Positions 1,732 to 15,496 of a stretch of DNA of 64,000 bases are shown piece by piece (position 1 is the first letter of the stretch; every line of letters begins with the position of its first letter). Origin of the DNA: Planctomycetota bacterium (GTDB lineage: Bacteria > Planctomycetota > GCA-002687715 > DRQF01); contig JBLINQ010000002.1 of NCBI GenBank assembly GCA_047639315.1, forward strand, positions 6,634 to 70,633, in the 5' to 3' direction. The notes beneath the pieces are model-generated. The model worked only from the letters and a program-made list of their open reading frames with translations. It searched no databases and was not told the DNA's origin. Both the position numbers and the translations under genes were made by a program.

Positions 1732-2139
1732 ATCTCAGCCTCCTGAATCCGAATCAAGGTCAATACTAGCGCGTTAACTTATCCTAATTCCAGGTAAAGA
1801 AACTACCTGGACAGATTGTCGCAGAATTATCAGCCTGATTCTACGTCTTCCCTGGCTCGGGACAATCCCAATGCATTGCTTCTGACTTGGGTAGAGAACT
1901 GGTCTTGCGACATTCTGACTGGTTGCACAAACGCTCCAGTGTCCGTACATTCCAAGGTATGAGATAGGGTCCAGGTGGGGCAATGTGCACAATTGAGCCG
2001 AGATGTCGTATGTGGCGTCCCAGGGTCAAACAGAGCATTTTTGCCATGATTGGATACCTACTTCGCTGTTGGAATGGACAACCAATTTGCGTGCACTTTT
2101 GCGCACAAGTTGCGGATAGATGGACCTTGGAGCCACTTG

Positions 2140-2739
2140 ATGACCGAGGAAAACAAAGATCAGGCAAAAGCTGTTGAGGCCCCAGAGGCCAAAGCTGCTA
2201 CTGCTGCTTTGAAACCTACAAAGCCCAAGCCTCGTTTGGTGCGGGACGACGAAGATGAGAAGCGTGCTGACCTGACACGGGAGCAGCGCCGTAATTTTGT
2301 CACCCTGATGATGAATGGCTTCTTCTTCATTCTGTTGGGCGCGTTCATGCGGTTCTTCTTCCCGCGTGCACTCTTTGAGCCGAAAACCAAATTCCCGATT
2401 GGCACACCAGCTGACTTTGAGCTGGGCGTTGATACGAGCTGGCAGGGCCGGCAGAGAATTTGGATCGTCAAAGATGCCGAGGGGATCTTTGTCATTTTCG
2501 CGAAGTGTACCCACCTGGGGTGCACGCCTGACTGGAAGGCTTCCGAAGACAAATTCAAATGCCCATGTCACGGTAGTGGATTCACACGCGACGGCATCAA
2601 CTTCGAGGGCCCGGCTCCTCGTCCCCTTGATCGCTGCCATGTCGAGTTAGACGCCACCGGGGCGATCGTCGTCGATAAACTAAAACTTTACAACTTCGAG
2701 AACTTCGAAGCGCCTGGGGCTAGGTTGCGTGGTGTTTAA
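2140..2739 (+). CDS. Rieske [2Fe-2S] subunit of a cytochrome bc/b6f-type complex
   Basis: Rieske boxes CTHLGC...CPCHGSGF with an N-terminal TM helix. I prefer ATG 2140, which has GGAG 7 nt upstream, over the track start at 2050. Confidence 0.85.
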   Translation: MTEENKDQAKAVEAPEAKAATAALKPTKPKPRLVRDDEDEKRADLTREQRRNFVTLMMNGFFFILLGAFMRFFFPRALFEPKTKFPIGTPADFELGVDTSWQGRQRIWIVKDAEGIFVIFAKCTHLGCTPDWKASEDKFKCPCHGSGFTRDGINFEGPAPRPLDRCHVELDATGAIVVDKLKLYNFENFEAPGARLRGV

Positions 2740-2793
2740 CACTGCTCACAGGACCGCAATGAAGCGAGTCCAACCCCGTAACGGAGGACGGGA

Positions 2794-3648
2794 TTGACCA
2801 TGTCAAAGTCAGACCAAGGTTCCGGCAAGAAGTCGAACAAAGAGAAATTGGCCGAGCTGGAAAAACAGCTCAAAGAAGGTCAAATCTGGAAGTCCGTGTT
2901 TCGACACAAGTTGGACGAGACTCCCAGAAACCGCTCGCTTGCGGTTCTATCGAACGTTTTCTTGCATCTGCATCCTGCGCGCATTAACCGCGACGCTGTT
3001 CGATACAACTTCACCTGGGGTATGGGTGGAATTACGTTCTACCTCTTCATCATCCTGACGCTCACCGGCGTCTTGTTGATGTTCTATTACCATCCCTCCA
3101 AGGTGCAGGCTTTTCGCGATATTCTTTACATCATGAATGATGTGCCTTTTGGCAACATTCTGAGGAATATGCATCGATGGGCGGCCCATGCCATGGTGAT
3201 GACTACCTGGTTCCATATGCTCCGGGTGTTCCTGACCGGTTCATACAAACCGCCCCGCGAATTCAACTGGGCGATTGGTGTTCAGCTTCTGCTGATAACC
3301 ATGCTCTTGTCGTTCACCGGCTACTTGTTGCCTGATGATCAGCTCGGTTTCTGGGCTGTGACCGTGGGAACAAACATGGCTCGTGCGACGCCGCTTTTAG
3401 GCCATGAAGGTCCATTAGCAGCGGAAATTGGCATTAACGCATTCAACGACGTTCGATTTGCTCTGTTAGGAGGTTCCATTGTGGACTCCAATGCTTTGCT
3501 GCGAGCGTATATCTGGCACTGTATCGCTATTCCGATTATTGCCAGCGTGTTGATGATTGTTCACTTCTGGCGCGTTCGGAAAGACGGGGCAATTTCTGGC
3601 CCGGCACCGATGATGCTCGAGAGTGAAATCAAACCGATCAAGAAGTAG
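2794..3648 (+). CDS. cytochrome b6-like subunit (N-terminal cytochrome b, split form)
   Basis: 284 aa with four-helix-bundle His pairs (MHRWAAHAMV; WHCIAIPIIASVLMIVHFW) typical of the cytochrome b N-terminal domain. It follows the Rieske gene. The start could be ATG 2800 instead of TTG 2794. Confidence 0.85.
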   Translation: MTMSKSDQGSGKKSNKEKLAELEKQLKEGQIWKSVFRHKLDETPRNRSLAVLSNVFLHLHPARINRDAVRYNFTWGMGGITFYLFIILTLTGVLLMFYYHPSKVQAFRDILYIMNDVPFGNILRNMHRWAAHAMVMTTWFHMLRVFLTGSYKPPREFNWAIGVQLLLITMLLSFTGYLLPDDQLGFWAVTVGTNMARATPLLGHEGPLAAEIGINAFNDVRFALLGGSIVDSNALLRAYIWHCIAIPIIASVLMIVHFWRVRKDGAISGPAPMMLESEIKPIKK

Positions 3649-3689
3649 TGATTGCCCTAGGGCACTCCGATTAAGGGAGAGAAGACTGA

Positions 3690-4676
3690 ATGTTCTTCCT
3701 CAGTGATCCATCCGGCTCTAAGCCTGAACTAGATGTTCATCCGCCGGCCGTCTTTGACGGACACCAGCTTTGGGAACTCGTTTCGTTGCCAGACAACGTG
3801 CCGATTGTCCTGATGTTGATCCTATTGATCTTCTATATGTGGATGGCGTTTCGTCAGGCCTTTGCCAACGATCGCCTGATTGAGCAGTTGGAGGGCGATC
3901 CCAACTTAGCCAAGACGCACCATAGGAAGACCTCTCCTTGGCACCCGAGCTGGGAGAAGACTGTCGCCGTGTGGCCACATTTGCTGAAACGCGAATTCTT
4001 GGCATCGGTGATTATTTTGGCCTTCTTGATCGTGTGGTCAGTTTTCCTCGATGCACCTCTTGAGTCACCGGCGAACCCGACCCTGACGATGAACCCGTCG
4101 AAGGCCCCATGGTACTTTCTTGGGCTGCAGGAAATCCTGGTCTACTTCGATCCTTGGATCGCTGGTGTGATCTTGCCTGGAATCATCGTCGGTGGTTTGA
4201 TGGCAATCCCCTACCTTGACCCGAATCCATTGGGCAATGGCTACTACACTTGGAAGCAACGGAAGTTCGCTATCACGATCTTCCTCATCGGTTTCCTCAT
4301 CTTGTGGGTCGCCTTGGTCATCCTCGGAACGTTTATGCGTGGCCCGGGTTGGATGTTCTTTTATCCTGGAGAAACCTGGGATCACTTGAAGGTCATCTAC
4401 GAAATTAACGTCGACTTGCATGAGATGTTTGGGATCACAGGAGCATGGGCTCGAGGGATCTTCGGTGCAGTCGTATGTGGTGCTTACTGTGTCATTGCTG
4501 GTGGAATCTTCCACGCATGGTTCCGCAAGTCGACCATGTACGCCCGTCTCAGCATTGCGCAATACGCCCATCTCCAATTTTTCATGATCACCATGATGTC
4601 ACTACCCGTGAAAATGATCCTCCGACTTGGATTCAACGTGAAGTACGTCTGGGTAACACCGTGGTTCAATATTTAA
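3690..4676 (+). CDS. cytochrome b C-terminal domain / subunit IV-like protein (extended)
   Basis: Contains a PEWY-equivalent motif, PSKAPWYFLGLQEILVYF, and multiple TM helices. It sits after the b6-like gene as in split b6f/bc operons. At 328 aa it is longer than a classical subunit IV. Confidence 0.75.
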   Translation: MFFLSDPSGSKPELDVHPPAVFDGHQLWELVSLPDNVPIVLMLILLIFYMWMAFRQAFANDRLIEQLEGDPNLAKTHHRKTSPWHPSWEKTVAVWPHLLKREFLASVIILAFLIVWSVFLDAPLESPANPTLTMNPSKAPWYFLGLQEILVYFDPWIAGVILPGIIVGGLMAIPYLDPNPLGNGYYTWKQRKFAITIFLIGFLILWVALVILGTFMRGPGWMFFYPGETWDHLKVIYEINVDLHEMFGITGAWARGIFGAVVCGAYCVIAGGIFHAWFRKSTMYARLSIAQYAHLQFFMITMMSLPVKMILRLGFNVKYVWVTPWFNI

Positions 4677-4733
4677 GCCGAGCTGCCTCGCAGTCGGTCG
4701 AAACGCACAAGAGCAGGATTTAAGGAGCGACAG

Positions 4734-7700
4734 ATGGCTGACAAGCAGTCCGTCCCCAAGGACCCAATTCAGACCAAATCCCTCAGTTTGCCAATCTTCT
4801 TGGCATCCGTTGTACTGATGGGTTCCGTTGTCTTGGCAGGGTACGACGAGTTTTTTGGACGGAGACCCTATAAGGGCATCCAGAAGGATTTCGTTACCGT
4901 TTACCTCAATCACCTAGAGGTTCTGCAACCTCAGCAAGAGAAGAAGCTAGAGAAACTGCAGAGCTCCAGGGAATACAAAAGCCTGGCAGAAGAGCGTGAC
5001 GCTGAAATTGAGGTGATGAACGCAGCAGTGGAACCTGTTGCTGTCGAACTCGCCGAATTGCAGACGAACATCGGTAGCCTTCAAGCCGCGTTCAAGAATT
5101 CGAGAGCCCAACTTGGTGCGCATCGTTATTCCTTGGAAACGGCACGGAGTGATTCTCGGCGTGATGAGATTCGCGCTGAAATGGCCGAAGTGAAGGCGGA
5201 AAAACTGCCCGTTACTTTGATCGAAGGCGAAGACGAGGTGGATGTGACTCTCACCTTTGATGAGATCTCAGCCAAGCTGCTGGTCTTGAACAAGCGCAAG
5301 TCACAACTTGACGCCCAGCGCGGTCAGCTTTCAGCTCGGTCGGGCGCTCTGCAAAAAGAGATTGATTCATACATCACCAAGAACATGGTCGGCCCTTTGC
5401 CGGCTAATGTTGCCAAGCTGCATGAAAAGACGTCCAAAGGACTTCTGGGTTCAGAGGGCAAAGGCGTCAACGACATCCTTCAGATTCACATTGGTGAATT
5501 CGATTGGGTCGATCGTTGCGAAAGTTGCCACGCTGGTACTCGTGAGCCCGTCAGTATGCGTGATTGGGATATCAACTTCGCCACCCCAGGTGACGAGCCA
5601 GTTGAAAACGCCCATGTGTTTACCACGCATCCGCATACCGGTTTGTTGGACATTCACAACCCAACCAAGTTCGGTTGCTCCATGTGTCACAATGGCAATG
5701 GTCGTTCGGTTACATCTGAGCATCTTGCTCACGGCATGAACCATCACTGGCTTTTCCCATTGACTGAAAGAAACCCAGTCGATGTCGAGAAGGGGATGGG
5801 CAGTTTTGAAGCTGGCTGTGTCCAGTGTCACAAGAGTGACCTTTACCTTGGCTACACACCGTCACCGTTCGTCGAAAAAGACGAAGCAGGACATGCGGTC
5901 AAGGACGACAAGGGGAATATGGTCGAGCATGATCGGGCTTCGGCCTTCAATACAGCTCGCCAACTTTTCCAGCACAATGGTTGCTGGGGTTGCCATCGTT
6001 ATGAAGGCATTGACACTCAACCTGAAGATATCGTCCAGATCGATAGCGAACTCCTTGGCCTTGTAGGCAAGGTTGACCGCCTGGATTTGGCTCAGGACTC
6101 TGCGCGCGATCCAAATACAAAGCGCCGGATCAACATGGATCTGGCCGCAATCGACACACGTCGCAACGAATTGGTCGCGAAACGTGCGGACCTCGAGAAG
6201 GAACGCCAAAAAGTTGGACCTGATCTTCGGTACATCAAGAAGAAGGTTCGTCCTGATTGGCTTTTGCCATGGTTGTTGAATCCCAAGGAATTCCGTCCTT
6301 CGACTAAGATGCCACAGTTTTTCCTCAACTTGAGTGAGGATAAGGCTCGTGAGCATGCGATGAAGATTGCTGCTTATCTTTGGCAGCAAAATCCAGCTGA
6401 AGACAAGGTCATCGGAACCTATGCCCGCGGCGACGCGAAGAAGGGTGAAGTGGCCTTTAAGTCTCGGGGCTGCCTTGGCTGCCATGCGATCGAAGATAAT
6501 GGCGAGATCGTCGGTGACGCCTTTGCCGCGAATCTTTCTCATGTCGGCGATAAGGTCGAGTATGACTACTTAGTCAAGTGGATCATGGAGCCTGACAACG
6601 GCGTCATGCCAAATCTGCGTCTGTCCGAAGAAGATTCGCGCAACGTTGCGACTTATCTGAAGGGTCGCACCGGTTCTGGCGTGAGCTACGAAGTTGTTGA
6701 CAAGCTCGACGACAAGGACTTTGCCCTCGAAGGGAAGAAGCTGATTTCTCATTACGGTTGTGCTGGCTGTCACACAATCAACCAGTTTGAAAATGAGGGT
6801 CGTATCGGCGTTGAGCTGACTAAGGAAGGATCGAAGCCGAAAGAGCGCCTCGACTTTGGTCGCTTGGAGCATGGCTTCAAACGTGCCCATCGCTACACGC
6901 ACAAGGCGTTCTTCGAAGAGAAGCTTCGTAATCCTGGTGTGTTTGGCAAAGGCAAAGTTTACGAGGATCCAGAGCAACTGGACCGTCTCAAAATGCCGAA
7001 TTTTGGTTTGGACGAGACGCAAATCGTTGCCTTGTCGACTCTTCTTTTGGGAAGTGTCGAATCAGAGATTCCTGACGCATTCAAATACAATCCTGATGAG
7101 CGTGGCCAAGCAATCCAAAAAGGTTGGTGGGTCATTAAGAAGTACAACTGTATTGGTTGCCACCAAATCGAACCGAGTGTCAATCCTAGCGTTTGGGATC
7201 TTCCTTACGATCAGTACCAGTTGACGGACAAGTCAGGGAAGAAGAAGACTGACATGCGTCCGCCATCCTTGGTTGGCATCGGTTTCCGGACGAATCCAAA
7301 ATGGTTGGCTGAATTCCTGAGGAATCCAACGCAGACTCATGAGCCTCTCTATGGCAACGGTCTTCGTGGATACCTTCAAATTCGGATGCCGACGTTCCGT
7401 ATGAGTGAAGGCGAAATCCAAACAATTGTGAAGTTCTTCGGCGCCCTGGATTCGCAATCGACTCCCTACGTCGCACCGGACCTCGCGCCATTGACCGCAA
7501 AAGAAAAGGTCATGGCTGGAAACGTCTTCCGCGAAGTGAACTGCAACAGTTGCCATGCCATTGGTGATGAGGAGCGTGACGCCAAGATTGGCGTTTTTGC
7601 TCCGAATCTTGTCTGGGCTGGCCGCAAACTGCGCTCGGATTGGACGACACGTTGGTTGGCGAATCCTCTGAAGTTGCTCCCAGGCACGAACATGCCTTCG

Positions 7701-7991
7701 AACTTCAGTGAAGAATGGATGATCACGAAGACTGATGGCACCGTTGTCATGGGTACGGAAATGGTGATTCGTCGAGGCTTTGCCAATATCAAGGACTATG
7801 CCACTAATTCGAACCTCAAGGTTCCTGTGGGCGAGATCGCTGAATCGAAGATGACACGTTATGTGGCATCGTCGATCACCGGAGATCTCAAAACCTATAA
7901 GGGTGATCACTTGAAGCTCATGATGCGTTACTTGCATATGGGTTATGACGATGAAGAGGCCCGCAAGGTGACTCCTGATCTCATGAAGTAG
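4734..7991 (+). CDS. membrane-anchored octaheme c-type cytochrome (1085 aa) of the bc-type complex
   Basis: Eight CxxCH motifs: CESCH, CSMCH, CVQCH, CWGCH, CLGCH, CAGCH, CIGCH, CNSCH. There is an N-terminal TM helix (LPIFLASVVLMGSVVLAG) followed by ~200 aa of coiled-coil-like sequence. It is the last gene of the Rieske/cyt b operon and is followed by a strong terminator. Confidence 0.85.
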   Translation: MADKQSVPKDPIQTKSLSLPIFLASVVLMGSVVLAGYDEFFGRRPYKGIQKDFVTVYLNHLEVLQPQQEKKLEKLQSSREYKSLAEERDAEIEVMNAAVEPVAVELAELQTNIGSLQAAFKNSRAQLGAHRYSLETARSDSRRDEIRAEMAEVKAEKLPVTLIEGEDEVDVTLTFDEISAKLLVLNKRKSQLDAQRGQLSARSGALQKEIDSYITKNMVGPLPANVAKLHEKTSKGLLGSEGKGVNDILQIHIGEFDWVDRCESCHAGTREPVSMRDWDINFATPGDEPVENAHVFTTHPHTGLLDIHNPTKFGCSMCHNGNGRSVTSEHLAHGMNHHWLFPLTERNPVDVEKGMGSFEAGCVQCHKSDLYLGYTPSPFVEKDEAGHAVKDDKGNMVEHDRASAFNTARQLFQHNGCWGCHRYEGIDTQPEDIVQIDSELLGLVGKVDRLDLAQDSARDPNTKRRINMDLAAIDTRRNELVAKRADLEKERQKVGPDLRYIKKKVRPDWLLPWLLNPKEFRPSTKMPQFFLNLSEDKAREHAMKIAAYLWQQNPAEDKVIGTYARGDAKKGEVAFKSRGCLGCHAIEDNGEIVGDAFAANLSHVGDKVEYDYLVKWIMEPDNGVMPNLRLSEEDSRNVATYLKGRTGSGVSYEVVDKLDDKDFALEGKKLISHYGCAGCHTINQFENEGRIGVELTKEGSKPKERLDFGRLEHGFKRAHRYTHKAFFEEKLRNPGVFGKGKVYEDPEQLDRLKMPNFGLDETQIVALSTLLLGSVESEIPDAFKYNPDERGQAIQKGWWVIKKYNCIGCHQIEPSVNPSVWDLPYDQYQLTDKSGKKKTDMRPPSLVGIGFRTNPKWLAEFLRNPTQTHEPLYGNGLRGYLQIRMPTFRMSEGEIQTIVKFFGALDSQSTPYVAPDLAPLTAKEKVMAGNVFREVNCNSCHAIGDEERDAKIGVFAPNLVWAGRKLRSDWTTRWLANPLKLLPGTNMPSNFSEEWMITKTDGTVVMGTEMVIRRGFANIKDYATNSNLKVPVGEIAESKMTRYVASSITGDLKTYKGDHLKLMMRYLHMGYDDEEARKVTPDLMK

Positions 7992-9020: not shown

Positions 9021-9446
9021 CTATTTGGGGTAGAGAACGTGCAGGAGCACGTAAATGAGAACACCTGTCACGGATACGTACATCCATACCGGCAAGACAA
9101 AACGCGCCAGTTTCCTGTGGCGATCGATCTTGTCCTTGATCCCAGCATGAGCCAGAATCAAGATCGGGGGCACCATGATGGCCGCCAGCGGAATGTGCGT
9201 AATCAGAATGAAGAAGTAAATATAGCGAATGACACCTTCTCCAGCGAAATGCTTCTCCTCACCTAAAGAGTGGTAGGTCAGGTAGGAAACCAGGAAAAGG
9301 GCCGATGCGACCAAGGCGCAAAGCATGGTCTTCTTGTGTTTTTCGACCTGGCCAGACTTCACTTGGCGATAGCCCAAGACCAGCAGGGAGAAAGCAACAA
9401 GATTGAGGCTGGCGTTGACTGCTGGCAGTGACGAAACAAAGTCCAT
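9021..9446 (-). CDS. DUF420 family membrane protein (CtaM-like oxidase-associated)
   Basis: 141 aa with 4 TM helices. The N-terminus LPAVNASLNLVAFSLLVLGY and the conserved His-containing helices resemble DUF420, and the gene clusters with SCO and cox genes. Confidence 0.65.
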   Translation of the reverse strand: MDFVSSLPAVNASLNLVAFSLLVLGYRQVKSGQVEKHKKTMLCALVASALFLVSYLTYHSLGEEKHFAGEGVIRYIYFFILITHIPLAAIMVPPILILAHAGIKDKIDRHRKLARFVLPVWMYVSVTGVLIYVLLHVLYPK

Positions 9447-10141
9447 TATTCACCTTTTTCCGCGTACAGCTCTCGAGCCATCACTTCTAAGGCCTTGAAG
9501 TCTGAGACCCGCTCGGCTCCGGCGCCATCGAAATACCCTCGAATGTGACCGTTTCGATCGACCAAGGCGCACTTCTTGGAGTGCATCAGCGCATCTGTGT
9601 CATTGAGAAGGAAGAAACCATGGCGACCCAACGCCTGGACGTCCTTTTGAGCGGCGCGAAGGAAATGCCAGCGCTCGTTGTTGGCTTTGTATTCGGCCGC
9701 ATACTCCTTCAGGGCTAACAGGGAGTCACGGTCTGGATCGACAGAGAAACTGACGAAGTTGAGATCAGGTAGATCGGTCGTCCGCTCTTGCAGCAATTGA
9801 GTCATTTGACTCATTTCAGGGCAATAGCCAGCACAGCTGGTGAAGATGAATTCTGCAACCCAAACTTTGCCTTTGAGGTCTTCGAGCCCAAGCTTGCCGC
9901 CGTTGGCGGAAGCGAAACGGAAGGGTGGCACAGGAGAGTCGAGCTTCTTGGCGCTCGTCTCATCGGTCTTGCCCGTCGCAATGGGTGATTTGACGTTCCG
10001 ACGCTCCTGCAATTGGTCTTTTAAGCCGAGTTTTCGATTGGAAAGGCTCCAAGCTGCTGCGCATGCTAGAAGAATAGCGGCAATAGTGACCGTGGAAACG
10101 ACGATTTTTTTGTTGGGAGCTGATTCAGCCATCTTTCTCAC
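9446..10141 (-). CDS. SCO1/SenC family copper chaperone / thiol-disulfide protein
   Basis: N-terminal TM anchor and a thioredoxin-like fold with the CxxxC copper motif FIFTSCAGYCPEM. It has cox gene context and a 1-nt overlap with the downstream DUF420 gene. Confidence 0.85.
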   Translation of the reverse strand: MRKMAESAPNKKIVVSTVTIAAILLACAAAWSLSNRKLGLKDQLQERRNVKSPIATGKTDETSAKKLDSPVPPFRFASANGGKLGLEDLKGKVWVAEFIFTSCAGYCPEMSQMTQLLQERTTDLPDLNFVSFSVDPDRDSLLALKEYAAEYKANNERWHFLRAAQKDVQALGRHGFFLLNDTDALMHSKKCALVDRNGHIRGYFDGAGAERVSDFKALEVMARELYAEKGE

Positions 10142-10411: not shown

Positions 10412-11308
10412 ATGTTGATGTCTCACGGCAAATTGGCACCGAGTCTTGTGTTGCTGCTTTTGGTCTCGTCGTTGATGCCTCTCGTAGGCTGCGATGGTGG
10501 TCCGAAACGGCGTGGACCCCAGAACTACACTGAGTATCGTGCCATAAACGATCCTCGCTATCGTGGCGCCAAGGGTGGCGCTGTTGAAGATACTGGCGAT
10601 GGTGATTTCGGCCCGACTTCCGGCGAAGTCTCAGTAACCTCCAGTGACGCGATCCGGACGGGAACAGTTCCGAATTCCGGCACCGTCAAAGGGATGGTTA
10701 AGTACACCGGCAAGGCCTCGAAGCCGAAGAAGATCAACAACTCGAAAACCGGGTACTGTGTCGAGGCTGCCACGCTCTACAGAGAAGACCTCTTGGTCTC
10801 GAATAGCGGTGGTTTGCAAAACGTCGTCGTCTATATCTCCAAGGGATTTCAAAGGTTCGAATTCGAGCCTTCTGCCAGCCCTTTCCAGATCAATCAGCAA
10901 GCATGTCGCTACGTGCCGCACATTGTCGCAGCCATGGCTGGGCAAGAGCTAGCGATCCAGAACAGTGACAAGACACCACACAACTATCATTTCTCTGGCC
11001 TCGCTAATCCTGGTATTAATAAGACCCAAGCGGTTCCTACGACCAATACGGAGGTCTTGGAGAACCCTGAAGTTGGGGCCAGCTTCGCTTGCGATATCCA
11101 TCCTTGGATGCAGGCGCCGGTTTACATCTTCAAGCATCCTTACTTCACTGTTTCGAGTGAAGACGGAAGCTTCGAGATCAAGAACCTGCCCGCTGGCACG
11201 TATCAAATTAGCTTTGCCCATGAGCGCAATGACATGAAGACGGTCGTGCAAACGGTCACCATTGAGCCTGGCAAGGAAGTGGCCATCAACGCGGAGATCA
11301 GTCGCTGA
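10412..11308 (+). CDS. lipoprotein with amicyanin-like cupredoxin motif plus carboxypeptidase-regulatory-like beta-sandwich
   Basis: Lipobox SSLMPLVGC. Putative type-1 Cu ligands are TPHNYHF ... CDIHPWM (compare the amicyanin C-x-x-H-P-F-M loop). The C-terminal FTVSSEDGSFEIKNLPAGTYQISF is a CarboxypepD_reg-like signature. Its stop overlaps the next ORF. Confidence 0.55.
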   Translation: MLMSHGKLAPSLVLLLLVSSLMPLVGCDGGPKRRGPQNYTEYRAINDPRYRGAKGGAVEDTGDGDFGPTSGEVSVTSSDAIRTGTVPNSGTVKGMVKYTGKASKPKKINNSKTGYCVEAATLYREDLLVSNSGGLQNVVVYISKGFQRFEFEPSASPFQINQQACRYVPHIVAAMAGQELAIQNSDKTPHNYHFSGLANPGINKTQAVPTTNTEVLENPEVGASFACDIHPWMQAPVYIFKHPYFTVSSEDGSFEIKNLPAGTYQISFAHERNDMKTVVQTVTIEPGKEVAINAEISR

Positions 11309-11382
11309 TGACGACCTCAACGAAAAAACGCGGCCTGCGCGCCGCCTTGATTTCACTCGGTGCCCTGAAGGAGAATCATCCT

Positions 11383-12210
11383 ATGAATTGGCGCAGCTTA
11401 CGGGCGAAAGTCATCGCACCCATATTTGCTGTCCTTTGCCTTGCTGCCCCAGCAATGAGTCAGAGGGGCTGGTTGCTTCCTGAAGCGATTTCCGAAACTG
11501 CTCAGAAGACTGATGACCTCTTTTGGTTGATCTTCTGGTTGGTTGGCATCGTGTTCGTTGGCACCGAAGGCTTGTTGATTTATTTCATCATCAAGTATCG
11601 CGCCAAGGAAGGTGGGAAAGCCCACTACATCCACGGCAACTACAAGGCCGAATTGATCTGGACCGCAACCCCAGCGATCATCCTGCTCCTCTTGGCCGTC
11701 CTTCAGTTCCAAACATGGGCTGAAATCAAAGATCCAGCGACTTTCCCAACTCAAGAAGACGACAACGCCGTTCAGGTGCATGTCTTGGCTCAGCAGTTTG
11801 CATGGAATTTCCGCTATCAGGGTCCAGACGAAGAATGGGGTACTGACGACGATTTCACCATCGAAAATGTCCTCATGGTTCCAAAGGATCGTCCGGTCAT
11901 ATTGCAGATGCGTTCGATCGACGTGATCCATTCTCTTTACTTGCCAGAGCTTCGTTTCAAGCAGGATTTGGTTCCTGGTTTGACGATGACTGGCTGGTTC
12001 GAAGCCAACAAAGCAGGCGAGTACGAAATCGCTTGCGCCGAACTTTGCGGTGCTTCCCACTACACCATGAGAGCTCTGATGACGATTCATGAGCCTGACG
12101 AGTGGGACGCCAAGGTAGCCGAACTATCGAAAGCACAAGGCGGAATCGACTATGAGTCGTCCGTGCAAAACTTTCGTTATTGGCGTCCAGAAGAGTTCGA
12201 ACAGAAGTAG
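11383..12210 (+). CDS. ctaC: cytochrome c oxidase subunit II (CuA subunit, no fused cytochrome c domain)
   Basis: CuA site HSLYLPE...CAELCGASHYTM, with a signal peptide and two TM helices. I prefer ATG 11383, which has AAGGAG 9 nt upstream, over the track start 11308. There is no CxxCH motif anywhere in the protein. Confidence 0.85.
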   Translation: MNWRSLRAKVIAPIFAVLCLAAPAMSQRGWLLPEAISETAQKTDDLFWLIFWLVGIVFVGTEGLLIYFIIKYRAKEGGKAHYIHGNYKAELIWTATPAIILLLLAVLQFQTWAEIKDPATFPTQEDDNAVQVHVLAQQFAWNFRYQGPDEEWGTDDDFTIENVLMVPKDRPVILQMRSIDVIHSLYLPELRFKQDLVPGLTMTGWFEANKAGEYEIACAELCGASHYTMRALMTIHEPDEWDAKVAELSKAQGGIDYESSVQNFRYWRPEEFEQK

Positions 12211-12258
12211 TGTTCAAGCTGCCCGCCTATGGGGCAGGCAAAGGTCTGAGGAATTAGT

Positions 12259-14073
12259 ATGAACGCATCAGCAGCATCAGCTGACCACGATGATCACGGA
12301 GATCATGGCCACCACGAAGAGAGCTTCATTCAGAAGTACTTCTTTACGGTTGACCATAAGATGATCGCAAAGCAGTTCCTGTTTTCAGGAATGTTGCTCT
12401 TTGCCTTGGGTGGTTTACTTGCCATCGCCGTCCGTTGGCAATTGGCTTGGCCATTCTCGGACATTCCGATATTTGGTCAATTCTCGCCAGAGAACTATTA
12501 CGCCGCAGTCACCATGCATGCGTCGGTGATGATCTTCTTGGTCATTATCCCGTTGATGGTTGGCTTCTTCGGTAACTGGTGCATACCACTGATGCTTGGC
12601 GCACCGGACATGGTGTTCCCAAGACTGAACATGTGGAGCTTCTGGATGTTCGTGCCTGGCGCGATCTTCATGCTCGCTGGGTTCTTTGTCGAGGGTGGAC
12701 CGAACGGGGCAGGTTGGACTTCGTATCCACCACTCTCCGCGATTCAAGAAGGCAATGGCGTGACGTTCTGGGCCTTGGGCGTCTTGTTCACCGGTTTCTC
12801 CGGTGTCATGGGTGCGGTCAACTACATCACCACAGTGTTGAAGTTCCGCGCACCTGGAATGACTCTCTTCCGTATGCCTTTGGTGGTTTGGTCGATCTTC
12901 ATTACATCGATCTTGACTCTCTTGGCGACACCAGTCTTGGCATCGACCTTGATCATGGTGTTCCTCGACCGCGTTGCCGGAACAAGTTTCTTCTGCCCTG
13001 ATGGATTGGTTGCTGGTAAGCAAATCTACTCTGGACCAGACGGTGTCGGCCAAGTGGTCAAAGCCGGTGGTGGACAAGTCCTCTTGTTCCAGCATCTCTT
13101 CTGGTTCTATAGCCATCCTGCAGTTTACATCATGGTTCTGCCGGGCATGGGCATTGTCTCTGACATCCTCTCAACATTCGCTCGCAAACCAGTTTTCGGC
13201 TACAAGCCAATGGTCTACTCCATGAGTGGTATCACCGGGATGGGCTTCTTCGTCTGGGGACACCATATGTTCCAATCAGGCATGAATCCTTACCTTGGCC
13301 TGACCTTCATGGTCTCGACGATGTTCATTGCGTTGCCAAGTGCGATTAAGGTATTCAACTGGCTTGGCACCATCTGGCGTGGTCAGCTTCACTTTGAAGT
13401 GCCAATGCTCTTCGCGCTGTCGTTCGTTGGTATGTTCATCATCGGTGGACTCTCAGGTATCTTCATGGCGGCAACGCCAGTCGATATCCATCTTCACGAC
13501 ACCTACTTCATCGTTGCTCATATTCACTATGTGGTGTTCGCTTCGACTGTCATGTCGATCTTCGCGGCGGTTTACTACTGGTTCCCGAAGATGTTTGGCC
13601 GGATGATGAACAAGACCTTGGGACAGATTCATTTCTGGCTGACCCTCTTGTTCTTGAACGGCACATTCATGCTGATGCATTATGTGGGTACTCAAGGTCA
13701 CCCTCGTCGTATCGCCGTGGGTGCTTGGGACGAGGCCACGAACACGGGTTACAAGTACCTGGAAGACTTCCACTGGGCGAACCAGTTCATGACCATTTCG
13801 GCCATCTGCTTGGGCTTCGCTCAGATTCCGTTCTTCTTTAACCTCTTTGTCAGCGTCTATAAGGGCGACAAAGCTCCCGACAATCCGTGGCGTGCAAACT
13901 CCCTGGAGTGGGCTGCCCCAACGCCTCCTCCTCATGGAAACTTTAGTAGTCCAATCCAAGTTTACCGGGGTCCTTACGAGTACAGCCATCCTGACATGAA
14001 AGAGGATTACACTCCTCAGCATATTGAGGACGGCGTACCTGTGCCCGGTACAACGACGGTCGCTTCGAACTAA
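12259..14073 (+). CDS. ctaD: cytochrome c oxidase subunit I
   Basis: 604 aa and polytopic, with canonical heme-copper oxidase motifs (WFYSHPAVYIMVLPGMG, GHHMF, HDTYFIVAHIHYV). Confidence 0.95.
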   Translation: MNASAASADHDDHGDHGHHEESFIQKYFFTVDHKMIAKQFLFSGMLLFALGGLLAIAVRWQLAWPFSDIPIFGQFSPENYYAAVTMHASVMIFLVIIPLMVGFFGNWCIPLMLGAPDMVFPRLNMWSFWMFVPGAIFMLAGFFVEGGPNGAGWTSYPPLSAIQEGNGVTFWALGVLFTGFSGVMGAVNYITTVLKFRAPGMTLFRMPLVVWSIFITSILTLLATPVLASTLIMVFLDRVAGTSFFCPDGLVAGKQIYSGPDGVGQVVKAGGGQVLLFQHLFWFYSHPAVYIMVLPGMGIVSDILSTFARKPVFGYKPMVYSMSGITGMGFFVWGHHMFQSGMNPYLGLTFMVSTMFIALPSAIKVFNWLGTIWRGQLHFEVPMLFALSFVGMFIIGGLSGIFMAATPVDIHLHDTYFIVAHIHYVVFASTVMSIFAAVYYWFPKMFGRMMNKTLGQIHFWLTLLFLNGTFMLMHYVGTQGHPRRIAVGAWDEATNTGYKYLEDFHWANQFMTISAICLGFAQIPFFFNLFVSVYKGDKAPDNPWRANSLEWAAPTPPPHGNFSSPIQVYRGPYEYSHPDMKEDYTPQHIEDGVPVPGTTTVASN

Positions 14074-14105: not shown

Positions 14106-14966
14106 ATGTGGTCTCAAGTCTCACAATATCTCGCAATGACCAAGCCGCGAGCCATGCTCGTCGTCCTCATGACGACAGCTGCTGGCTACTTCTTGGCCCA
14201 AACGGGAGAGACAGAGTGGTGGACCCTGACGAGTTTGTTGATCGGCGCAGGCCTCTCCGGTGGTGGTTCAATTGTTCTGAACCAGTTTTTGGAACGTGAC
14301 CATGATCGGTTGATGGTCAGGACGCAGAACCGACCACTGCCTTCCGGTGCCGTGATGCCTTTGAATGCCCTCATCTATGGCATTCTGTTGAGCTTCATCG
14401 GAACTGCGTGGCTGGCCATTGGCGTCAATGCAATCACCGCCATCTTAGGTGGCCTCTGTGTTCTGTCTTACGTTCTTATCTACACACCGATGAAGCGGAC
14501 GACCCACTGGAACACCGCGGTTGGCGCGATTCCAGGTGCCATCCCACCCATGATGGGGTGGACGGCCGTAACAGGATCTATTGATTTGGAGGCATGGGTT
14601 CTCTTCGGAGTCCTCTTCCTCTGGCAATATCCCCATTTCTTGGCGTTGGGTTGGATGTATCGCAAGGACTATGCTGACGCTGGTTATCGTATGCTTTCCC
14701 GCATTGACCTTTCAGGCGAGCGGACGGCAAGACAGGTTCTGCTCAATACAAGTTTGCTGACAGTCTTTACGCTCTTGCCAGCAAGTATGGGATGGGCAGG
14801 CGTCGTGTATGCGATGGGTGCGCCAATTTTGGGTCTTGGTCTGTTGGCTTTAGGCGTTGCCTTTTATCGCCAACGAAGCGACCTGATGGCCAGACTGCTC
14901 TTGCGCGGCACCATTGTGCACATAACGTTACTGATGGTTCTTTTGGTTATGGATAGGACGTCATGA
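14106..14966 (+). CDS. ctaB: protoheme IX farnesyltransferase (heme O synthase)
   Basis: A UbiA-family polytopic protein with NQFLERDHDRLMVRTQNRPLPSG and WQYPHFLALGW motifs, directly downstream of ctaD. Confidence 0.9.
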   Translation: MWSQVSQYLAMTKPRAMLVVLMTTAAGYFLAQTGETEWWTLTSLLIGAGLSGGGSIVLNQFLERDHDRLMVRTQNRPLPSGAVMPLNALIYGILLSFIGTAWLAIGVNAITAILGGLCVLSYVLIYTPMKRTTHWNTAVGAIPGAIPPMMGWTAVTGSIDLEAWVLFGVLFLWQYPHFLALGWMYRKDYADAGYRMLSRIDLSGERTARQVLLNTSLLTVFTLLPASMGWAGVVYAMGAPILGLGLLALGVAFYRQRSDLMARLLLRGTIVHITLLMVLLVMDRTS

Positions 14967-15205
14967 TGCGACATCTATCACTGATCTTCTTGGTCATGGC
15001 ACTCTTGGCCGTCGAGGCATTCGCCTGACCAAGCTGAAAGCAGGCCGTTAATTCCGCCGTGGTCACGCCGGATTCATCAGAGTGGTTTACGTCCATCGTC
15101 TTGATGGTGTCTCTCCCCGTCCTCATGGTCGGCGGAACAATCACGACTTTGGTTGTGATGACGAAGAACGCCCAAGCCAAGCAGGAAGAAGACGAGTCGA
15201 TCTAA
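14963..15205 (+). CDS. candidate recoded small membrane protein: signal peptide - [TGA]-P-S-[TGA] - TM anchor (alternatively a 21-codon ORF plus a separate small ORF)
   Basis: ATG 14963 overlaps the ctaB stop (ATGA). The frame stays open to TAA 15203-15205 except for in-frame TGA codons at 15026-15028 and 15035-15037. The translation is MMRHLSLIFLVMALLAVEAFA-*-PS-*-KQAVNSAVVTPDSSEWFTSIVLMVSLPVLMVGGTITTLVVMTKNAQAKQEEDESI. A terminator follows. See findings. Confidence 0.3.
15053..15072 (+). promoter_or_regulatory. SECIS-like hairpin candidate downstream of the two in-frame TGA codons
   Basis: TCCG-C-CGT [GGTC] ACG-C-CGGA: 7 bp with one C-C mismatch and a GGUC apical loop. The loop lies 23 nt after the second TGA and 32 nt after the first. 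Confidence 0.2.
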
Positions 15206-15225
15206 GACGAGTCTCGCGTAAAAAA

Positions 15226-15267
15226 AATGGCGGCTTCATACCAGGCACTCGGGAGGAAGCCGCCATT
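15226..15267. terminator. bidirectional terminator hairpin between convergent cox operon and mtnA-purEC operon
   Basis: AATGGCGGCTTC ... GAAGCCGCCATT is a 12-bp perfect stem. It is preceded by A7 (a T-run for the minus strand) and followed by TTT. Confidence 0.7.
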
Positions 15268-15292
15268 TCAACATCTACGGCGAAGAATTGGA

Positions 15293-15496
15293 TTACTTGC
15301 TGTAACCCAAGTTCTTCAAGACCTGCAACACCTCGCTCCAGCTAGGGAATAATTGGCCCGTCTCACTCTTGAACGTCTCGATGGCTTGGATGAATTCTAG
15401 TTCTTCATCCGCAACCGGAGTCGCGTAGTGTGAAACTTTACGGCCTGAGCTGGGTGTCGTCATTGCGATCTCCGTGTCACGGTCGGGAATCGCCAT
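15293..15496 (-). CDS. small hypothetical protein (67 aa)
   Basis: An ORF between mtnA and the terminator hairpin on the same strand. No family was recognised. The acidic helical C-terminus EELEFIQAIETFKSETGQLFPSWSEVLQVLKNLGY looks protein-like. Confidence 0.4.
   Translation of the reverse strand: MAIPDRDTEIAMTTPSSGRKVSHYATPVADEELEFIQAIETFKSETGQLFPSWSEVLQVLKNLGYSK

Follow-up and report, generated by a model that had tools for sequence, protein, structure and literature searches.

The last cistron of the cox operon

The 3′ end of a planctomycete cytochrome oxidase (cox) operon raises the question of whether a reading frame broken by two closely spaced TGA codons is a gene, and if so how it is read. 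In the window, which is the whole stretch of 64 kb analysed here, a single plus-strand frame runs from ATG 14963 to the TAA at 15203-15205, with TGA at 15026-15028 and TGA at 15035-15037 as its only interruptions. The ATG overlaps the ctaB stop (14964-14966) as ATGA, and the conceptual product is MMRHLSLIFLVMALLAVEAFA-U-PS-U-KQAVNSAVVTPDSSEWFTSIVLMVSLPVLMVGGTITTLVVMTKNAQAKQEEDESI. A sequence-only reading of the locus had described this frame, the overlap and the two TGAs as a possible UxxU selenoprotein, and all of these were reproduced, together with the translation, when 14963-15205 was rechecked. The architecture at the core of that reading also holds, in that a signal peptide ending in AxA is followed by a U/CxxC-type motif and then by a transmembrane (TM) anchor. 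Our answer is that 14963-15205 is probably a real gene that closes the cox operon as a translationally coupled cistron and represents the selenocysteine (Sec) form of a small planctomycete protein family, with both TGAs read as Sec. The features on which the argument rests are these.

9021..10141, minus strand: SCO1/SenC (9446-10141) and DUF420/CtaM-like (9021-9446) genes, from Pfam matches
11308..14073, plus strand: coxII (11308-12210) and coxI (12259-14073), Pfam COX2, COX2_TM and COX1, in the same operon
14106..14966, plus strand: ctaB, heme O synthase of the UbiA family (Pfam UbiA, E 1.5e-56)
14963..15025, plus strand: part coding for the signal peptide MMRHLSLIFLVMALLAVEAFA, with a basic n-region, a 13-residue hydrophobic core and an A-F-A cleavage motif
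15026..15028, plus strand: first in-frame UGA (UGA1), proposed Sec, which would be residue 1 of the mature protein and aligns with the invariant Cys1 of CPxC
15035..15037, plus strand: second in-frame UGA (UGA2), proposed second Sec (UxxU), at the position of motif Cys4
15038..15055, plus strand: ancestral position of the family hairpin, degraded in the window (differences from L088, the closest relative, at 8 of 18 nt)
15053..15072, plus strand: GGUC-tetraloop hairpin, candidate displaced SECIS, UCCG.CGU-GGUC-ACG.CGGA
15083..15160, plus strand: TM helix WFTSIVLMVSLPVLMVGGTITTLVVM, where conservation within the family is highest (S-I-[VL]-x-M...P)
15161..15205, plus strand: short charged cytoplasmic tail TKNAQAKQEEDESI and TAA stop; the Cys forms have a basic tail after the TM helix
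15225..15268, no strand assigned: strong hairpin (terminator) between the convergent small cistron and a 67-aa minus-strand ORF, from folding energies

The neighbours named in the sequence-only reading, COX3, DUF420 and SCO1 on the minus strand followed by CoxII, CoxI and CtaB, all stand. The strong terminator that it had placed downstream is likewise real (-25.5 kcal/mol and z -5.2 on the plus strand; -25.3 kcal/mol and z -4.2 on the minus strand), its U-run being a U8 tail that occurs on the minus-strand transcript only. CtaB of the window has 286 aa and gave no record in an exact look-up; a 270-aa call of the same gene is P0045 (L087).

TGA is the ordinary stop codon of 15 of the 47 genes in the window, so the genetic code is not reassigned, and a scan of the window for other TGA-split genes gave nothing convincing. 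A GTG-initiated ORF of 48 aa is present at 15059-15205. In the contigs examined, gene callers give nothing for the Sec-form cistron, or merely a 35-aa fragment (L090), and the overlooked gene constitutes a gap in annotation.

Conservation and selection downstream of ctaB

The same cistron was found directly 3′ of ctaB in 10 further distinct planctomycete contigs (L001, L002, L004 (=L090), L088, L089, L091 (=L092), L093, L094, L095 and L096), the CtaB proteins of which are 59-85% identical to that of the window. An overlap with ctaB, either ATGA or TGATG, is kept in 11 of the 11 distinct sequences formed by the window and these contigs. It had been proposed to look for conserved TGA pairs at this position in related genomes, and for a constant frame relation between the signal peptide and the TM segment. 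The frame relation is kept in all 11 sequences, and motif position 1 is TGA in 11/11, with zero reversions to TGY. Conservation of the second TGA did not hold to the same extent, since motif position 4 is Cys (TGT or TGC) in nine of the 11 and TGA in two, the window and L094. The latter is a second UxxU in an independent lineage (CtaB 62% identical); there is a possible frameshift problem nearby on the L094 contig. A Logan assembly, L087, differs from the window by one mismatch in 15.5 kb and contains both TGAs, but possibly comes from the same sample and is perhaps not fully independent.

The sequence downstream of the UGA is under purifying selection and evolves as coding sequence. In pairwise comparisons pN/pS after the UGA is 0.16-0.49, with pS up to 0.93, and in the TM region it is 0.16-0.36 across pairs. 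Between the window and L088 the TM region differs at 14 of 87 nucleotides (16%), and 11 of these 14 differences lie at third codon positions. The segment from TGA to the TM helix (P-N/S-C-x-E-A-V...) is kept at the amino-acid level with synonymous changes. The signal peptide has a pN/pS of about 0.75-1.07, which is usual for signal peptides, and its frame and length are kept. A conserved in-frame UGA followed by conserved coding sequence, the pattern that marks a selenoprotein gene, is hence observed at this locus.

The fallback given in the sequence-only reading was the absence of any read-through, the region being noncoding or made up of two unrelated small ORFs, the first of them leader-like and 21 codons long. 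The near silence of the gene callers favours this explanation, as does the fact that selA, selB, selD and tRNA-Sec are not seen in the 64-kb window or in the related loci examined, which are small regions and carry little weight. ARAGORN and Rfam reported only tRNA-Arg in the window, Pfam identified no SelA, SelB or SelD among the 20 window ORFs of SelA-, SelB- or SelD-like size, and ARAGORN returned no tRNA-Sec from 10 related loci. Some Planctomycetes have full selA/B/C/D sets (PMC4807772). Against the fallback stand the conservation of the TGA-to-TM segment as amino acids, the constant frame relation between signal peptide and TM segment, and the relatives, which offer no start codon between TGA and the TM helix from which the downstream part could be made. 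The whole product moreover aligns end to end with proteins that are not interrupted at all (see below). The fallback is strongly disfavoured, and we regard it as very improbable indeed.

Cysteine forms and the CPxC family

The Cys-containing orthologues predicted by the sequence-only reading exist, as a CPxC family in which the first TGA falls on Cys1. A search of a protein database with the 80-aa conceptual product (U→C) gave no matches. Sec forms are never predicted by gene callers, and the family was reached by a metagenome scan with an alignment, which gave L081 and L082, followed by a search with a Cys form, which gave P0001-P0044. It comprises at least 741 clusters at E≤1e-10, and 2234 clusters when the threshold is relaxed to E≤1e-3; CPxC is present in 192 of 193 members. 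When the Sec forms, with U masked as X, were compared with the Cys forms by hhalign, profile against profile (alignment A3, the Cys-form family, and alignment A4), the match had a probability of 99.4% and an E-value of 2.7e-21, with X on Cys1; the Sec-form product aligns end to end with the uninterrupted proteins.

Members of the family have 70-120 aa. A cleavable signal peptide (A/V-x-A/G) is followed by the motif [C/U]-P-x-[C/U]-K-[E/D], a periplasmic stretch of about 15 residues, a single TM helix containing S-I-[LV]-x-M...P and a short tail in the cytoplasm, and the Sec forms share this architecture. Among the 192 CPxC members, position −3 of the cleavage site is A or V in 86% (A 74%, V 12.5%, L 4%) and position −1 is A or G in 100%, whereas position −2 is variable and often bulky (W, E, Q, D). 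These −3/−1 statistics fit a signal peptidase I site and not a lipobox. A lipoprotein reading of the A-C junction was considered and rejected, as the lipobox [LVI]-[ASTVI]-[GAS]-C is not matched, L being found at −3 in just 4%. The AF2 model of a Cys-form member contains helices only, one of them long and at the TM region. In it Cys1 caps the N-terminus of a short helix, a placement of moderate confidence (pLDDT about 64 at this point).

The genomic setting of the two forms is related but not identical. The Cys-form gene lies directly after SCO1-DUF420 in cox clusters in four of four contexts (L081, L082, L083 and L084-L086). The Sec forms also belong to cox clusters, where they follow coxII-coxI-ctaB and SCO1-DUF420 lies upstream in divergent orientation. 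Within the Sec clade, the small gene has been relocated to the 3′ end of the operon formed by coxII, coxI and ctaB.

Neither the Sec forms (U→C) nor the Cys forms matched a Pfam or NCBIfam family at the family cut-off or with a convincing E-value, and a profile search of the PDB gave nothing below E 0.9. Weak matches to GSU3128 and NOVBLXIJ did not hold across the family and were discarded. A 2026 list of 119 prokaryotic selenoprotein families (PMC13188914) does not include the family, nor is it mentioned in an oxidase-assembly review. Most likely, it is a previously undescribed selenoprotein family, the Cys versions of which are widespread beside cytochrome oxidase assembly genes of planctomycetes.

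A candidate SECIS in the UxxC relatives

The sequence-only reading had pointed to a SECIS-like hairpin with a GGUC loop. Such a hairpin is conserved and covaries in the relatives, but the copy cited in the window (15053-15072) lies off the family position. A core stem starting 10-11 nt after the UGA is possible in nine of the nine UxxC forms. In seven of them it is a 6-bp stem with a GGUC tetraloop, at nt 15-30 after the U of the UGA, and the segment involved (the K-E-A-V-A-S codons) forms G(G)A(A/G/U)GC-GGUC-GC(U/C/A)UC(C). In the other two, L093 and L095, a longer stem begins at nt 15 and the first loop nucleotide is G. Taken together, the relatives have stems of 6-10 bp and GGUC, GAUCA or GACCAG loops that start 17-21 nt after the UGA, with folding energies of -7.4 to -17.1 kcal/mol. 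Bacterial SECIS elements (bSECIS) are recognized by the size of the loop, by a G among its first two nucleotides, by a spacing of 16-37 nt and by a cut-off of -7.5 kcal/mol (PMC13188914). In loop size, G position and spacing the hairpins of the relatives agree with this description, and the changes in their stems are compensatory.

The covariation was seen in alignment A2, which holds six of the seven GGUC forms. All cells (100%) are paired, compared with 39-67% in slid controls, and two pairs have double changes (GC/AU/GU and AU/GC/UA), a result matched by 8 of 500 shuffles. The excised hairpins of the relatives have z-scores of -2.7 to -3.9, whereas z-scores for the minimum free energy of the whole segment of 45 nt after the UGA are -2.0 to +0.1 and uninformative for Sec or Cys forms alike. 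The signal of the hairpin is carried by its position, the identity of its loop and covariation.

Proposed decoding of the two UGAs in the window

The hairpin at 15053-15072 folds as the sequence-only reading had described it, though weakly. It consists of 3+4 bp with a C.C mismatch, has a folding energy of -7.2 kcal/mol (z -0.8 against dinucleotide shuffles), just short of the bSECIS cut-off, and another fold of comparable energy competes with it. Counted from UGA2 and from UGA1, the stem begins after 15 nt and 24 nt respectively, compared with 10-11 nt in the family, and the loop after 23 nt and 32 nt; loop and spacing both agree with bSECIS. In loop and codon phase the hairpin equals the canonical one of the family, from which it is displaced by exactly 5 codons (15 nt). 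In 128 kb of window sequence, only five GGTC tetraloops have at least seven of eight flanking pairs. The covariance model R1, which describes the canonical hairpin, did not recover the one in the window at E≤10, and the latter cannot for this reason be called homologous by sequence.

These features could also arise if the family is a genuine UxxC selenoprotein of which the window copy is decaying. TGC→TGA at 15035 would then be a nonsense mutation, the ancestral SECIS would be lost and the GGUC hairpin would be coincidental; translation would end at or before 15037, and the TM part, if made at all, would come from GTG 15059 without a redox motif. The segment directly after UGA2 is indeed the part that has diverged most from L088, the ancestral hairpin position is destroyed there, and the changes include the non-synonymous E→Q and A→N, a divergence that fits relaxed constraint as well as it fits remodelling of a SECIS. 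The weakness of the new hairpin, its competing fold, its spacing off the family norm, its escape from the covariance model and the presence of the GTG-initiated ORF all point the same way. Yet the exact family tetraloop recurs in the same codon phase 5 codons downstream, which by chance would be expected at roughly 1e-3. Neither indels nor additional stops interrupt the frame, the coupling overlap with ctaB is retained and change in the TM region is biased towards third codon positions. The independent UxxU copy in L094 speaks against decay as well, with a strong hairpin that starts exactly 11 nt after UGA2, so that the hairpin lies further downstream in both UxxU variants. We consider decay of the window copy unlikely.

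Two other ideas were examined and set aside. Two mutually exclusive hairpins, one for each UGA, found no support in L094 and the window, the upstream alternatives being weak (-4.8 and -3.8 kcal/mol, z about 0). A cupredoxin-like gene of L094, with an in-frame TGA and a strong AGGUC-loop hairpin, was ambiguous as independent proof of Sec, since the homologues are matched slightly better when a compensated double frameshift is assumed.

It may also be asked whether a SelC*-type tRNA (tRNA-ReC), with SelB and the same hairpin, inserts Cys at one UGA or at both, and at the second in particular, which would yield U-P-S-C or C-P-S-C. Genes for tRNA-ReC-like molecules occur in about 56% of genomes with UXXU-type hydrogenases and in about 2% of other Sec-type genomes, and where they occur either UGA may be read as Cys (PMC13582414). 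The homologous residues in the wider family are also Cys. On the other hand, no such tRNA is present in the window or the related loci, small regions of little weight, and the UGA at position 1 has been kept for long in every distinct sequence. That it never reverts to TGY argues that a Cys codon would not provide all that UGA does. Reading as Cys appears quite improbable.

The preferred interpretation is that both UGAs encode Sec. UGA1 would be decoded by SelB and tRNA-Sec acting on the hairpin, and in the lineage of the window Cys4 would also have become UGA, giving UxxU, with the hairpin rebuilt 5 codons downstream. One displaced SECIS would in that case serve two UGAs that are 9 nt apart. 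UxxU is known to arise within UxxC or CxxU clades (PMC13188914, PMC13582414), and a single SECIS serving UXXU has been proposed (PMC13582414). L088, with UPNC and the canonical hairpin, and the window, with UPSU and a hairpin 5 codons further on, are a natural pair of close sequences, to which L094 adds a second, independent case; with these, the decoding of two adjacent UGAs with one SECIS becomes testable. If true, this would be a natural demonstration of a bacterial SECIS repositioned for two UGAs, and of a U-P-S-U site capable of forming a diselenide.

Proposed function

A new selenoprotein family would here occupy an unusual place, the aerobic respiratory operon of Planctomycetota, and have an unusual shape, the mature protein being a membrane-anchored periplasmic polypeptide of about 58 residues with a predicted N-terminal Sec. 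After cleavage by signal peptidase, Sec would be the N-terminal residue of a membrane-tethered periplasmic peptide. Judged from gene context, the selenol/thiol (or diselenide) pair may cooperate with SCO1 and DUF420/CtaM in thiol-disulfide exchange or in handling of Cu(I) while the aa3-type oxidase matures, and we propose that the protein is a selenol/thiol or Cu(I) factor of the periplasm that serves this maturation. The tight linkage of the CPxC family to SCO1 and DUF420/CtaM makes it a candidate for a missing factor in CuA/CuB or thiol maintenance during oxidase assembly, and reviews state that such assembly factors remain to be found.

One may speculate further, and tentatively, that the protein is a minimal redox or metal module that dispenses with the thioredoxin fold. 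Sec or Cys would be residue 1 of a tethered peptide of about 20 residues, and its free alpha-amine could form, with the selenol/thiol pair, an active site that acts on SCO1/CoxII by delivering Cu(I) or by reducing disulfides. Under the same possible scheme, the two independent UxxC→UxxU transitions were each accompanied by a slide of the SECIS that would allow one element to decode two UGAs.

Comparison with known systems

The closest parallel to the decoding signal is the SECIS of E. coli fdhF, where an in-frame UGA is likewise followed by a short hairpin within the coding sequence, with a spacer of about 11 nt before the stem. GGUC is located at nt 22-25 in fdhF (verified in its sequence) and at nt 21-24 from the U of the UGA in the family. 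The stem of the fdhF SECIS has a bulged U; that of the family is a plain 6-bp helix without it.

Known UxxU proteins, namely Prx-like/SelL-type proteins, the metal-binding protein NF041115, FmdB-family proteins and the UXXU-type Group 4 [NiFeSe] hydrogenases, resemble the window copy in having two UGAs with two sense codons between them that replace CxxC, apparently with one downstream hairpin. The small cox protein is nevertheless unrelated to them, having no Prx/Trx fold and not being a hydrogenase, and neither Sec (U→C) nor Cys forms gave NCBIfam matches to Prx-like/SelL, NF041115 or TIGR02605; UxxU spacing alone is common ground. In both cases described here the change to UxxU goes with a downstream shift of the hairpin, whereas the SECIS core of the hydrogenases is reported to be unchanged.

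With TlpA, ResA and DsbA the family shares a membrane-anchored C-x-x-C facing the periplasm and a genetic link with SCO1 and oxidase genes. C-P-x-C is similar to the CPHC of DsbA and the CPYC of Grx, and Cys1 at a helix N-cap in the AF2 model recalls the active sites of Trx-fold proteins. TlpA reduces Sco and CoxB before insertion of CuA. The TlpA-like role suggested in the sequence-only reading is consistent with gene context, but the protein itself is not of the thioredoxin fold, which takes about 100 residues or more. Its periplasmic part has about 20 residues, its motif would be at the very N-terminus of the mature protein, and Thioredoxin and Redoxin models of Pfam and NCBIfam gave no matches at E≤10.

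The copper chaperones of oxidases (SCO1/SenC, PCuAC, Cox11 and the mitochondrial Cox17) offer another parallel to this family, whose members are small, have two closely spaced Cys residues and are encoded with SCO1 and cox genes. No sequence similarity to any of these chaperones is seen, there is no Pfam, NCBIfam or solved-structure match to SCO1, PCuAC, Cox11 or HMA/CopZ, and no known metal-chaperone domain is present; the dithiol or selenol-thiol pair is a plausible set of ligands for Cu(I). Finally, CtaM (DUF420), which acts in oxidase biogenesis, is a different protein, and the Cys-form gene follows it immediately 3′ in four of four contexts, an adjacency that suggests that the two belong to one functional module (PMC9145763).

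The small cistron and its neighbourhood

The open frame described in the sequence-only reading, with its ATG on the ctaB stop and two TGAs as its sole breaks, was matched exactly when the window was re-read. The start codon at 14963 overlaps the ctaB stop TGA at 14964-14966, and the conceptual product is MMRHLSLIFLVMALLAVEAFA-U-PS-U-KQAVNSAVVTPDSSEWFTSIVLMVSLPVLMVGGTITTLVVMTKNAQAKQEEDESI, where U denotes proposed selenocysteine (Sec). TGA is an ordinary stop in 15 of the 47 large ORFs of the window, so that a genome-wide reassignment of TGA does not apply.

Features of the region
14963 (ATG) to 15203-15205 (TAA), + strand: small cistron, single frame, interrupted only by TGA 15026 (UGA1) and TGA 15035 (UGA2)
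Neighbours: COX3, DUF420 and SCO1 on the minus strand; then a 298-aa protein, CoxII, CoxI and CtaB
15225-15268: strong hairpin, -25.5 kcal/mol, z -5.2, U-run on the minus-strand transcript

The strong terminator noticed earlier is a strong hairpin with its U-run on the opposite transcript. It is common to the small cistron and a conserved, convergent 67-aa ORF (15293-15496, minus strand) without Pfam match, for which it forms a canonical U8-tailed intrinsic terminator; this ORF is also gene-called in the related contigs L087 and L090, and measures 64-65 aa in L091 and L096. The 298-aa protein (10412-11308, plus strand), 5′ of coxII, has a weak CarboxypepD_reg match only, an amicyanin-like type-1 copper pattern (H-N-Y...C-D-I-H-P-W-M) and a signal- or lipoprotein-like N-terminus. 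Its position is kept across the clade (L090 6258-7157, L093 560-1450, L094 5062-5841), and it may be an electron donor or copper protein of this oxidase. Further 5′ of the cox genes (2050-7991, plus strand), there are ORFs of 229, 284, 328 (cytochrome b C-terminal domain) and 1085 aa, suggestive of a bc-type complex with a giant multihaem cytochrome adjoining the oxidase operon; the L090 homologue of the 1085-aa ORF has faint cytochrome c matches.

Conservation of the read-through frame

Relatives came from scanning genomes with CtaB and from a protein search whose matches were looked up on their contigs. Ten further distinct sequences carry the same cistron; all derive from Planctomycetota (MAGs or metagenomes), and their CtaB shares 59-85% identity with that of the window. 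In addition, the Logan assembly L087 differs from the window by one mismatch in 15.5 kb and has both TGAs. In every relative the ATG overlaps the ctaB stop (ATGA or TGATG), and a signal-peptide-like N-terminus ending A/V/G-x-A/G is followed by TGA and P-N/S. The proposed TGA pair was retained in part: the first TGA is present in all, while the second recurs only in L094, and motif position 4 is Cys (TGT or TGC) in the other nine (L001, L002, L004/L090, L088, L089, L091/L092, L093, L095 and L096). The segment K/G/R-E/D-A-V-A-S-A...W/Y-F-x-S-I-V/I-x-M...P then leads in frame to the TM helix and a short tail, so that the signal-peptide and TM parts are linked through the TGA throughout.

No ATG, GTG or TTG occurs in the relatives from the TGA to the middle of the TM helix, and the P-N-C-x-E-A-V segment is therefore translatable only via read-through. 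Over the 47 codons after the TGA, pN/pS is 0.16-0.49 with pS up to 0.93 (Nei-Gojobori), and of the 14 differences that separate the window from its closest relative, L088, over 87 nt of TM sequence, 11 fall at third positions. Gene callers annotate nothing here, or only a 35-aa fragment (L090 10984-11091), in the window and all related loci, which is why the Sec forms are invisible in protein databases.

A cysteine family aligned with the first UGA

A metagenome scan with the Sec-form alignment yielded two contigs with uninterrupted ORFs (signal peptide-A-C-P-N-C-K-E-A...TM) directly 3′ of a DUF420 gene. A protein search with one Cys form gave 44 proteins of 71-121 aa, none with a Pfam domain, in whose alignment C-P-x-C and S-I-L-F-M are invariant. 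When the nine full-length Sec forms, with X in place of U, were compared as a profile with this family, X fell on Cys1 (99.4% probability, E 2.7e-21), bearing out the expectation of Cys orthologues. Among 1.84 billion cluster representatives, 2234 family members were found at E<=1e-3 and 741 at E<=1e-10. Searches with Sec and Cys forms found the family neither in Pfam and PDB sequences nor in NCBIfam with its curated selenoprotein models. The window cistron is a conserved read-through cistron, and its UGA stands where the conserved CPxC has its first Cys.

In all four contexts examined, the Cys-form gene (X) closes the series ...SCO1-DUF420-X inside COX1-CtaA-CtaB-COX3-COX4-ABC-SCO1-DUF420 clusters. 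An ABC transporter (ABC_tran and ABC2_membrane) lies directly 5′ of SCO1-DUF420-CPxC, and in one context VKOR and a Redoxin protein are encoded close by; these are hints of a more extensive module for periplasmic redox or copper functions.

Side features of the Cys-form clusters
L083: 4706-6638
L086: 163-1029
L084: 3617-4195 and 7224-7895

The family hairpin

Seven UxxC forms (one TGA) have a 6-bp stem capped by a GGUC tetraloop at nt 15-30, numbering from the U of UGA. An alignment of six of these hairpins has each of its 36 cells paired, with both-side changes at pairs 15:30 (GC, AU or GU) and 18:27 (AU, GC or UA); just 8 of 500 column shuffles matched this pairing and covariation, and slid controls paired in 39-67% of cells. 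L096 has a G.U variant, and L093 and L095 have longer stems, also from nt 15, with the G-first loops GAUCA and GACCAG. The relatives' hairpins (z -2.7 to -3.9 when excised) agree with the bSECIS criteria (PMC13188914), and a GGUC-loop hairpin is missing from the corresponding place in the four Cys-form DNAs. In the E. coli fdhF SECIS, GGUC occupies nt 22-25, one nucleotide farther from UGA than in this family; that sequence is 100% identical in fdhF of 5413 genomes.

In MFE folds GACCA (window 15027-15031, overlapping UGA1) pairs with UGGUU (15083-15087) of conserved Trp-Phe codons, about 55 nt apart and enclosing the whole SECIS region, as also in L004. This may be coincidence, both segments being under coding constraint as well.

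Displaced hairpins in the UxxU forms

L088 has UPNC and the canonical hairpin; relative to it, the window motif shows N->S and TGC->TGA. Eight changes in 18 nt have left the ancestral hairpin site unable to fold, and six changes in 21 nt give a new hairpin, UCCG.CGU-GGUC-ACG.CGGA, that keeps the canonical tetraloop and codon phase and is shifted exactly 5 codons 3′. Its stem begins 15 nt 3′ of UGA2 and 24 nt 3′ of UGA1. GGTC tetraloops with at least 7/8 flanking pairs number 5 in 128 kb (both window strands), so that ~1e-3 would be expected in the 22-nt permitted zone. The SECIS-like GGUC hairpin first noticed here does fold and has a covarying counterpart in relatives, but this copy is a marginal, displaced version of the family element: its energy is -7.2 kcal/mol (z -0.8), an alternative fold of similar energy rivals it, and a covariance model of the canonical hairpin did not recover it.

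L094, from a distant lineage (CtaB 62% identical), has U-P-S-U-K independently of the window, and its strong hairpin, CGCCUCC-GGA-GGAGGCG, begins exactly 11 nt after UGA2. Both UxxU hairpins thus lie farther downstream than those of the nine UxxC forms, a shift by which, in our reading, the SECIS has adapted to the second UGA. For UXXU-type hydrogenases one SECIS has been proposed to serve both UGAs, with Cys insertion by tRNA-ReC noted as possible (PMC13582414).

L094 also has an in-frame TGA (5512-5514) within a cupredoxin-like gene, followed after 12 nt by the strong hairpin GCGCCCA-AGGUC-UGGGCGC (5527-5545; -13.7 kcal/mol, z -3.3), which has the GGUC loop motif. The TGA may be a second Sec site of the operon or belong to a compensated double frameshift; the alternative frame is slightly closer to the homologues.

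Decoding and proposed function

The case for Sec rests on comparative evidence: Sec and Cys forms of one family, a conserved UGA, a coding signal and hairpin covariation. We infer, with good support, that UGA1 would be decoded by SelB/SECIS-dependent Sec insertion and, with moderate support, that UGA2 at 15035 would encode a second Sec served by the displaced hairpin. For the family as a whole, Sec at UGA1 is highly probable; it is fairly likely that the copy in the window works and that both of its UGAs are read through. The selenoprotein reading is in this way supported by UGA conservation, Cys1 alignment and covariation, but the hairpin it cited is the marginal one. None of selA, selB, selC and selD was found in the 64-kb window or related loci; some Planctomycetes carry the complete set (PMC4807772).

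Among 193 members, the residue before Cys1 (-1) is A or G in 100%, residue -3 is A or V in 86%, and residue -2 is variable, often bulky or charged. These statistics rule out a lipobox and indicate a signal peptidase I site, cleavage at which would make Cys1/Sec the first residue of the mature protein. For a Cys form, AlphaFold2 predicts (mean pLDDT 78.8, with about 64 near the motif) a signal helix, then a break at A-C, then a short helix beginning with Pro, and a single long TM helix.

The gene context suggests that a membrane-tethered periplasmic selenol/thiol pair could act with SCO1 and DUF420/CtaM in oxidase maturation, by thiol-disulfide exchange or Cu(I) transfer. This suggestion draws on a review (PMC9145763) according to which TlpA reduces SCO/CoxB in some bacteria, TlpA homologues are missing from many, and further assembly factors are expected.

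Comparison with known systems

The small protein belongs neither to the thioredoxin-fold proteins nor to the known copper chaperones or the lipoproteins. The 119 prokaryotic selenoprotein families tabulated in 2026 (PMC13188914) do not include its family, and the Cys form has no Pfam or NCBIfam model and is unmentioned in the oxidase-assembly review (PMC9145763). We rate the small protein as a new selenoprotein family. The manner of decoding proposed is that of classical bacterial Sec insertion. UxxU motifs are already known from Prx-like/SelL proteins, the NF041115 metal-binding protein, FmdB-family proteins and Group 4 [NiFeSe] hydrogenases; the small protein lies outside all of these, and its UxxU variants with a displaced SECIS are a noteworthy feature of the family.
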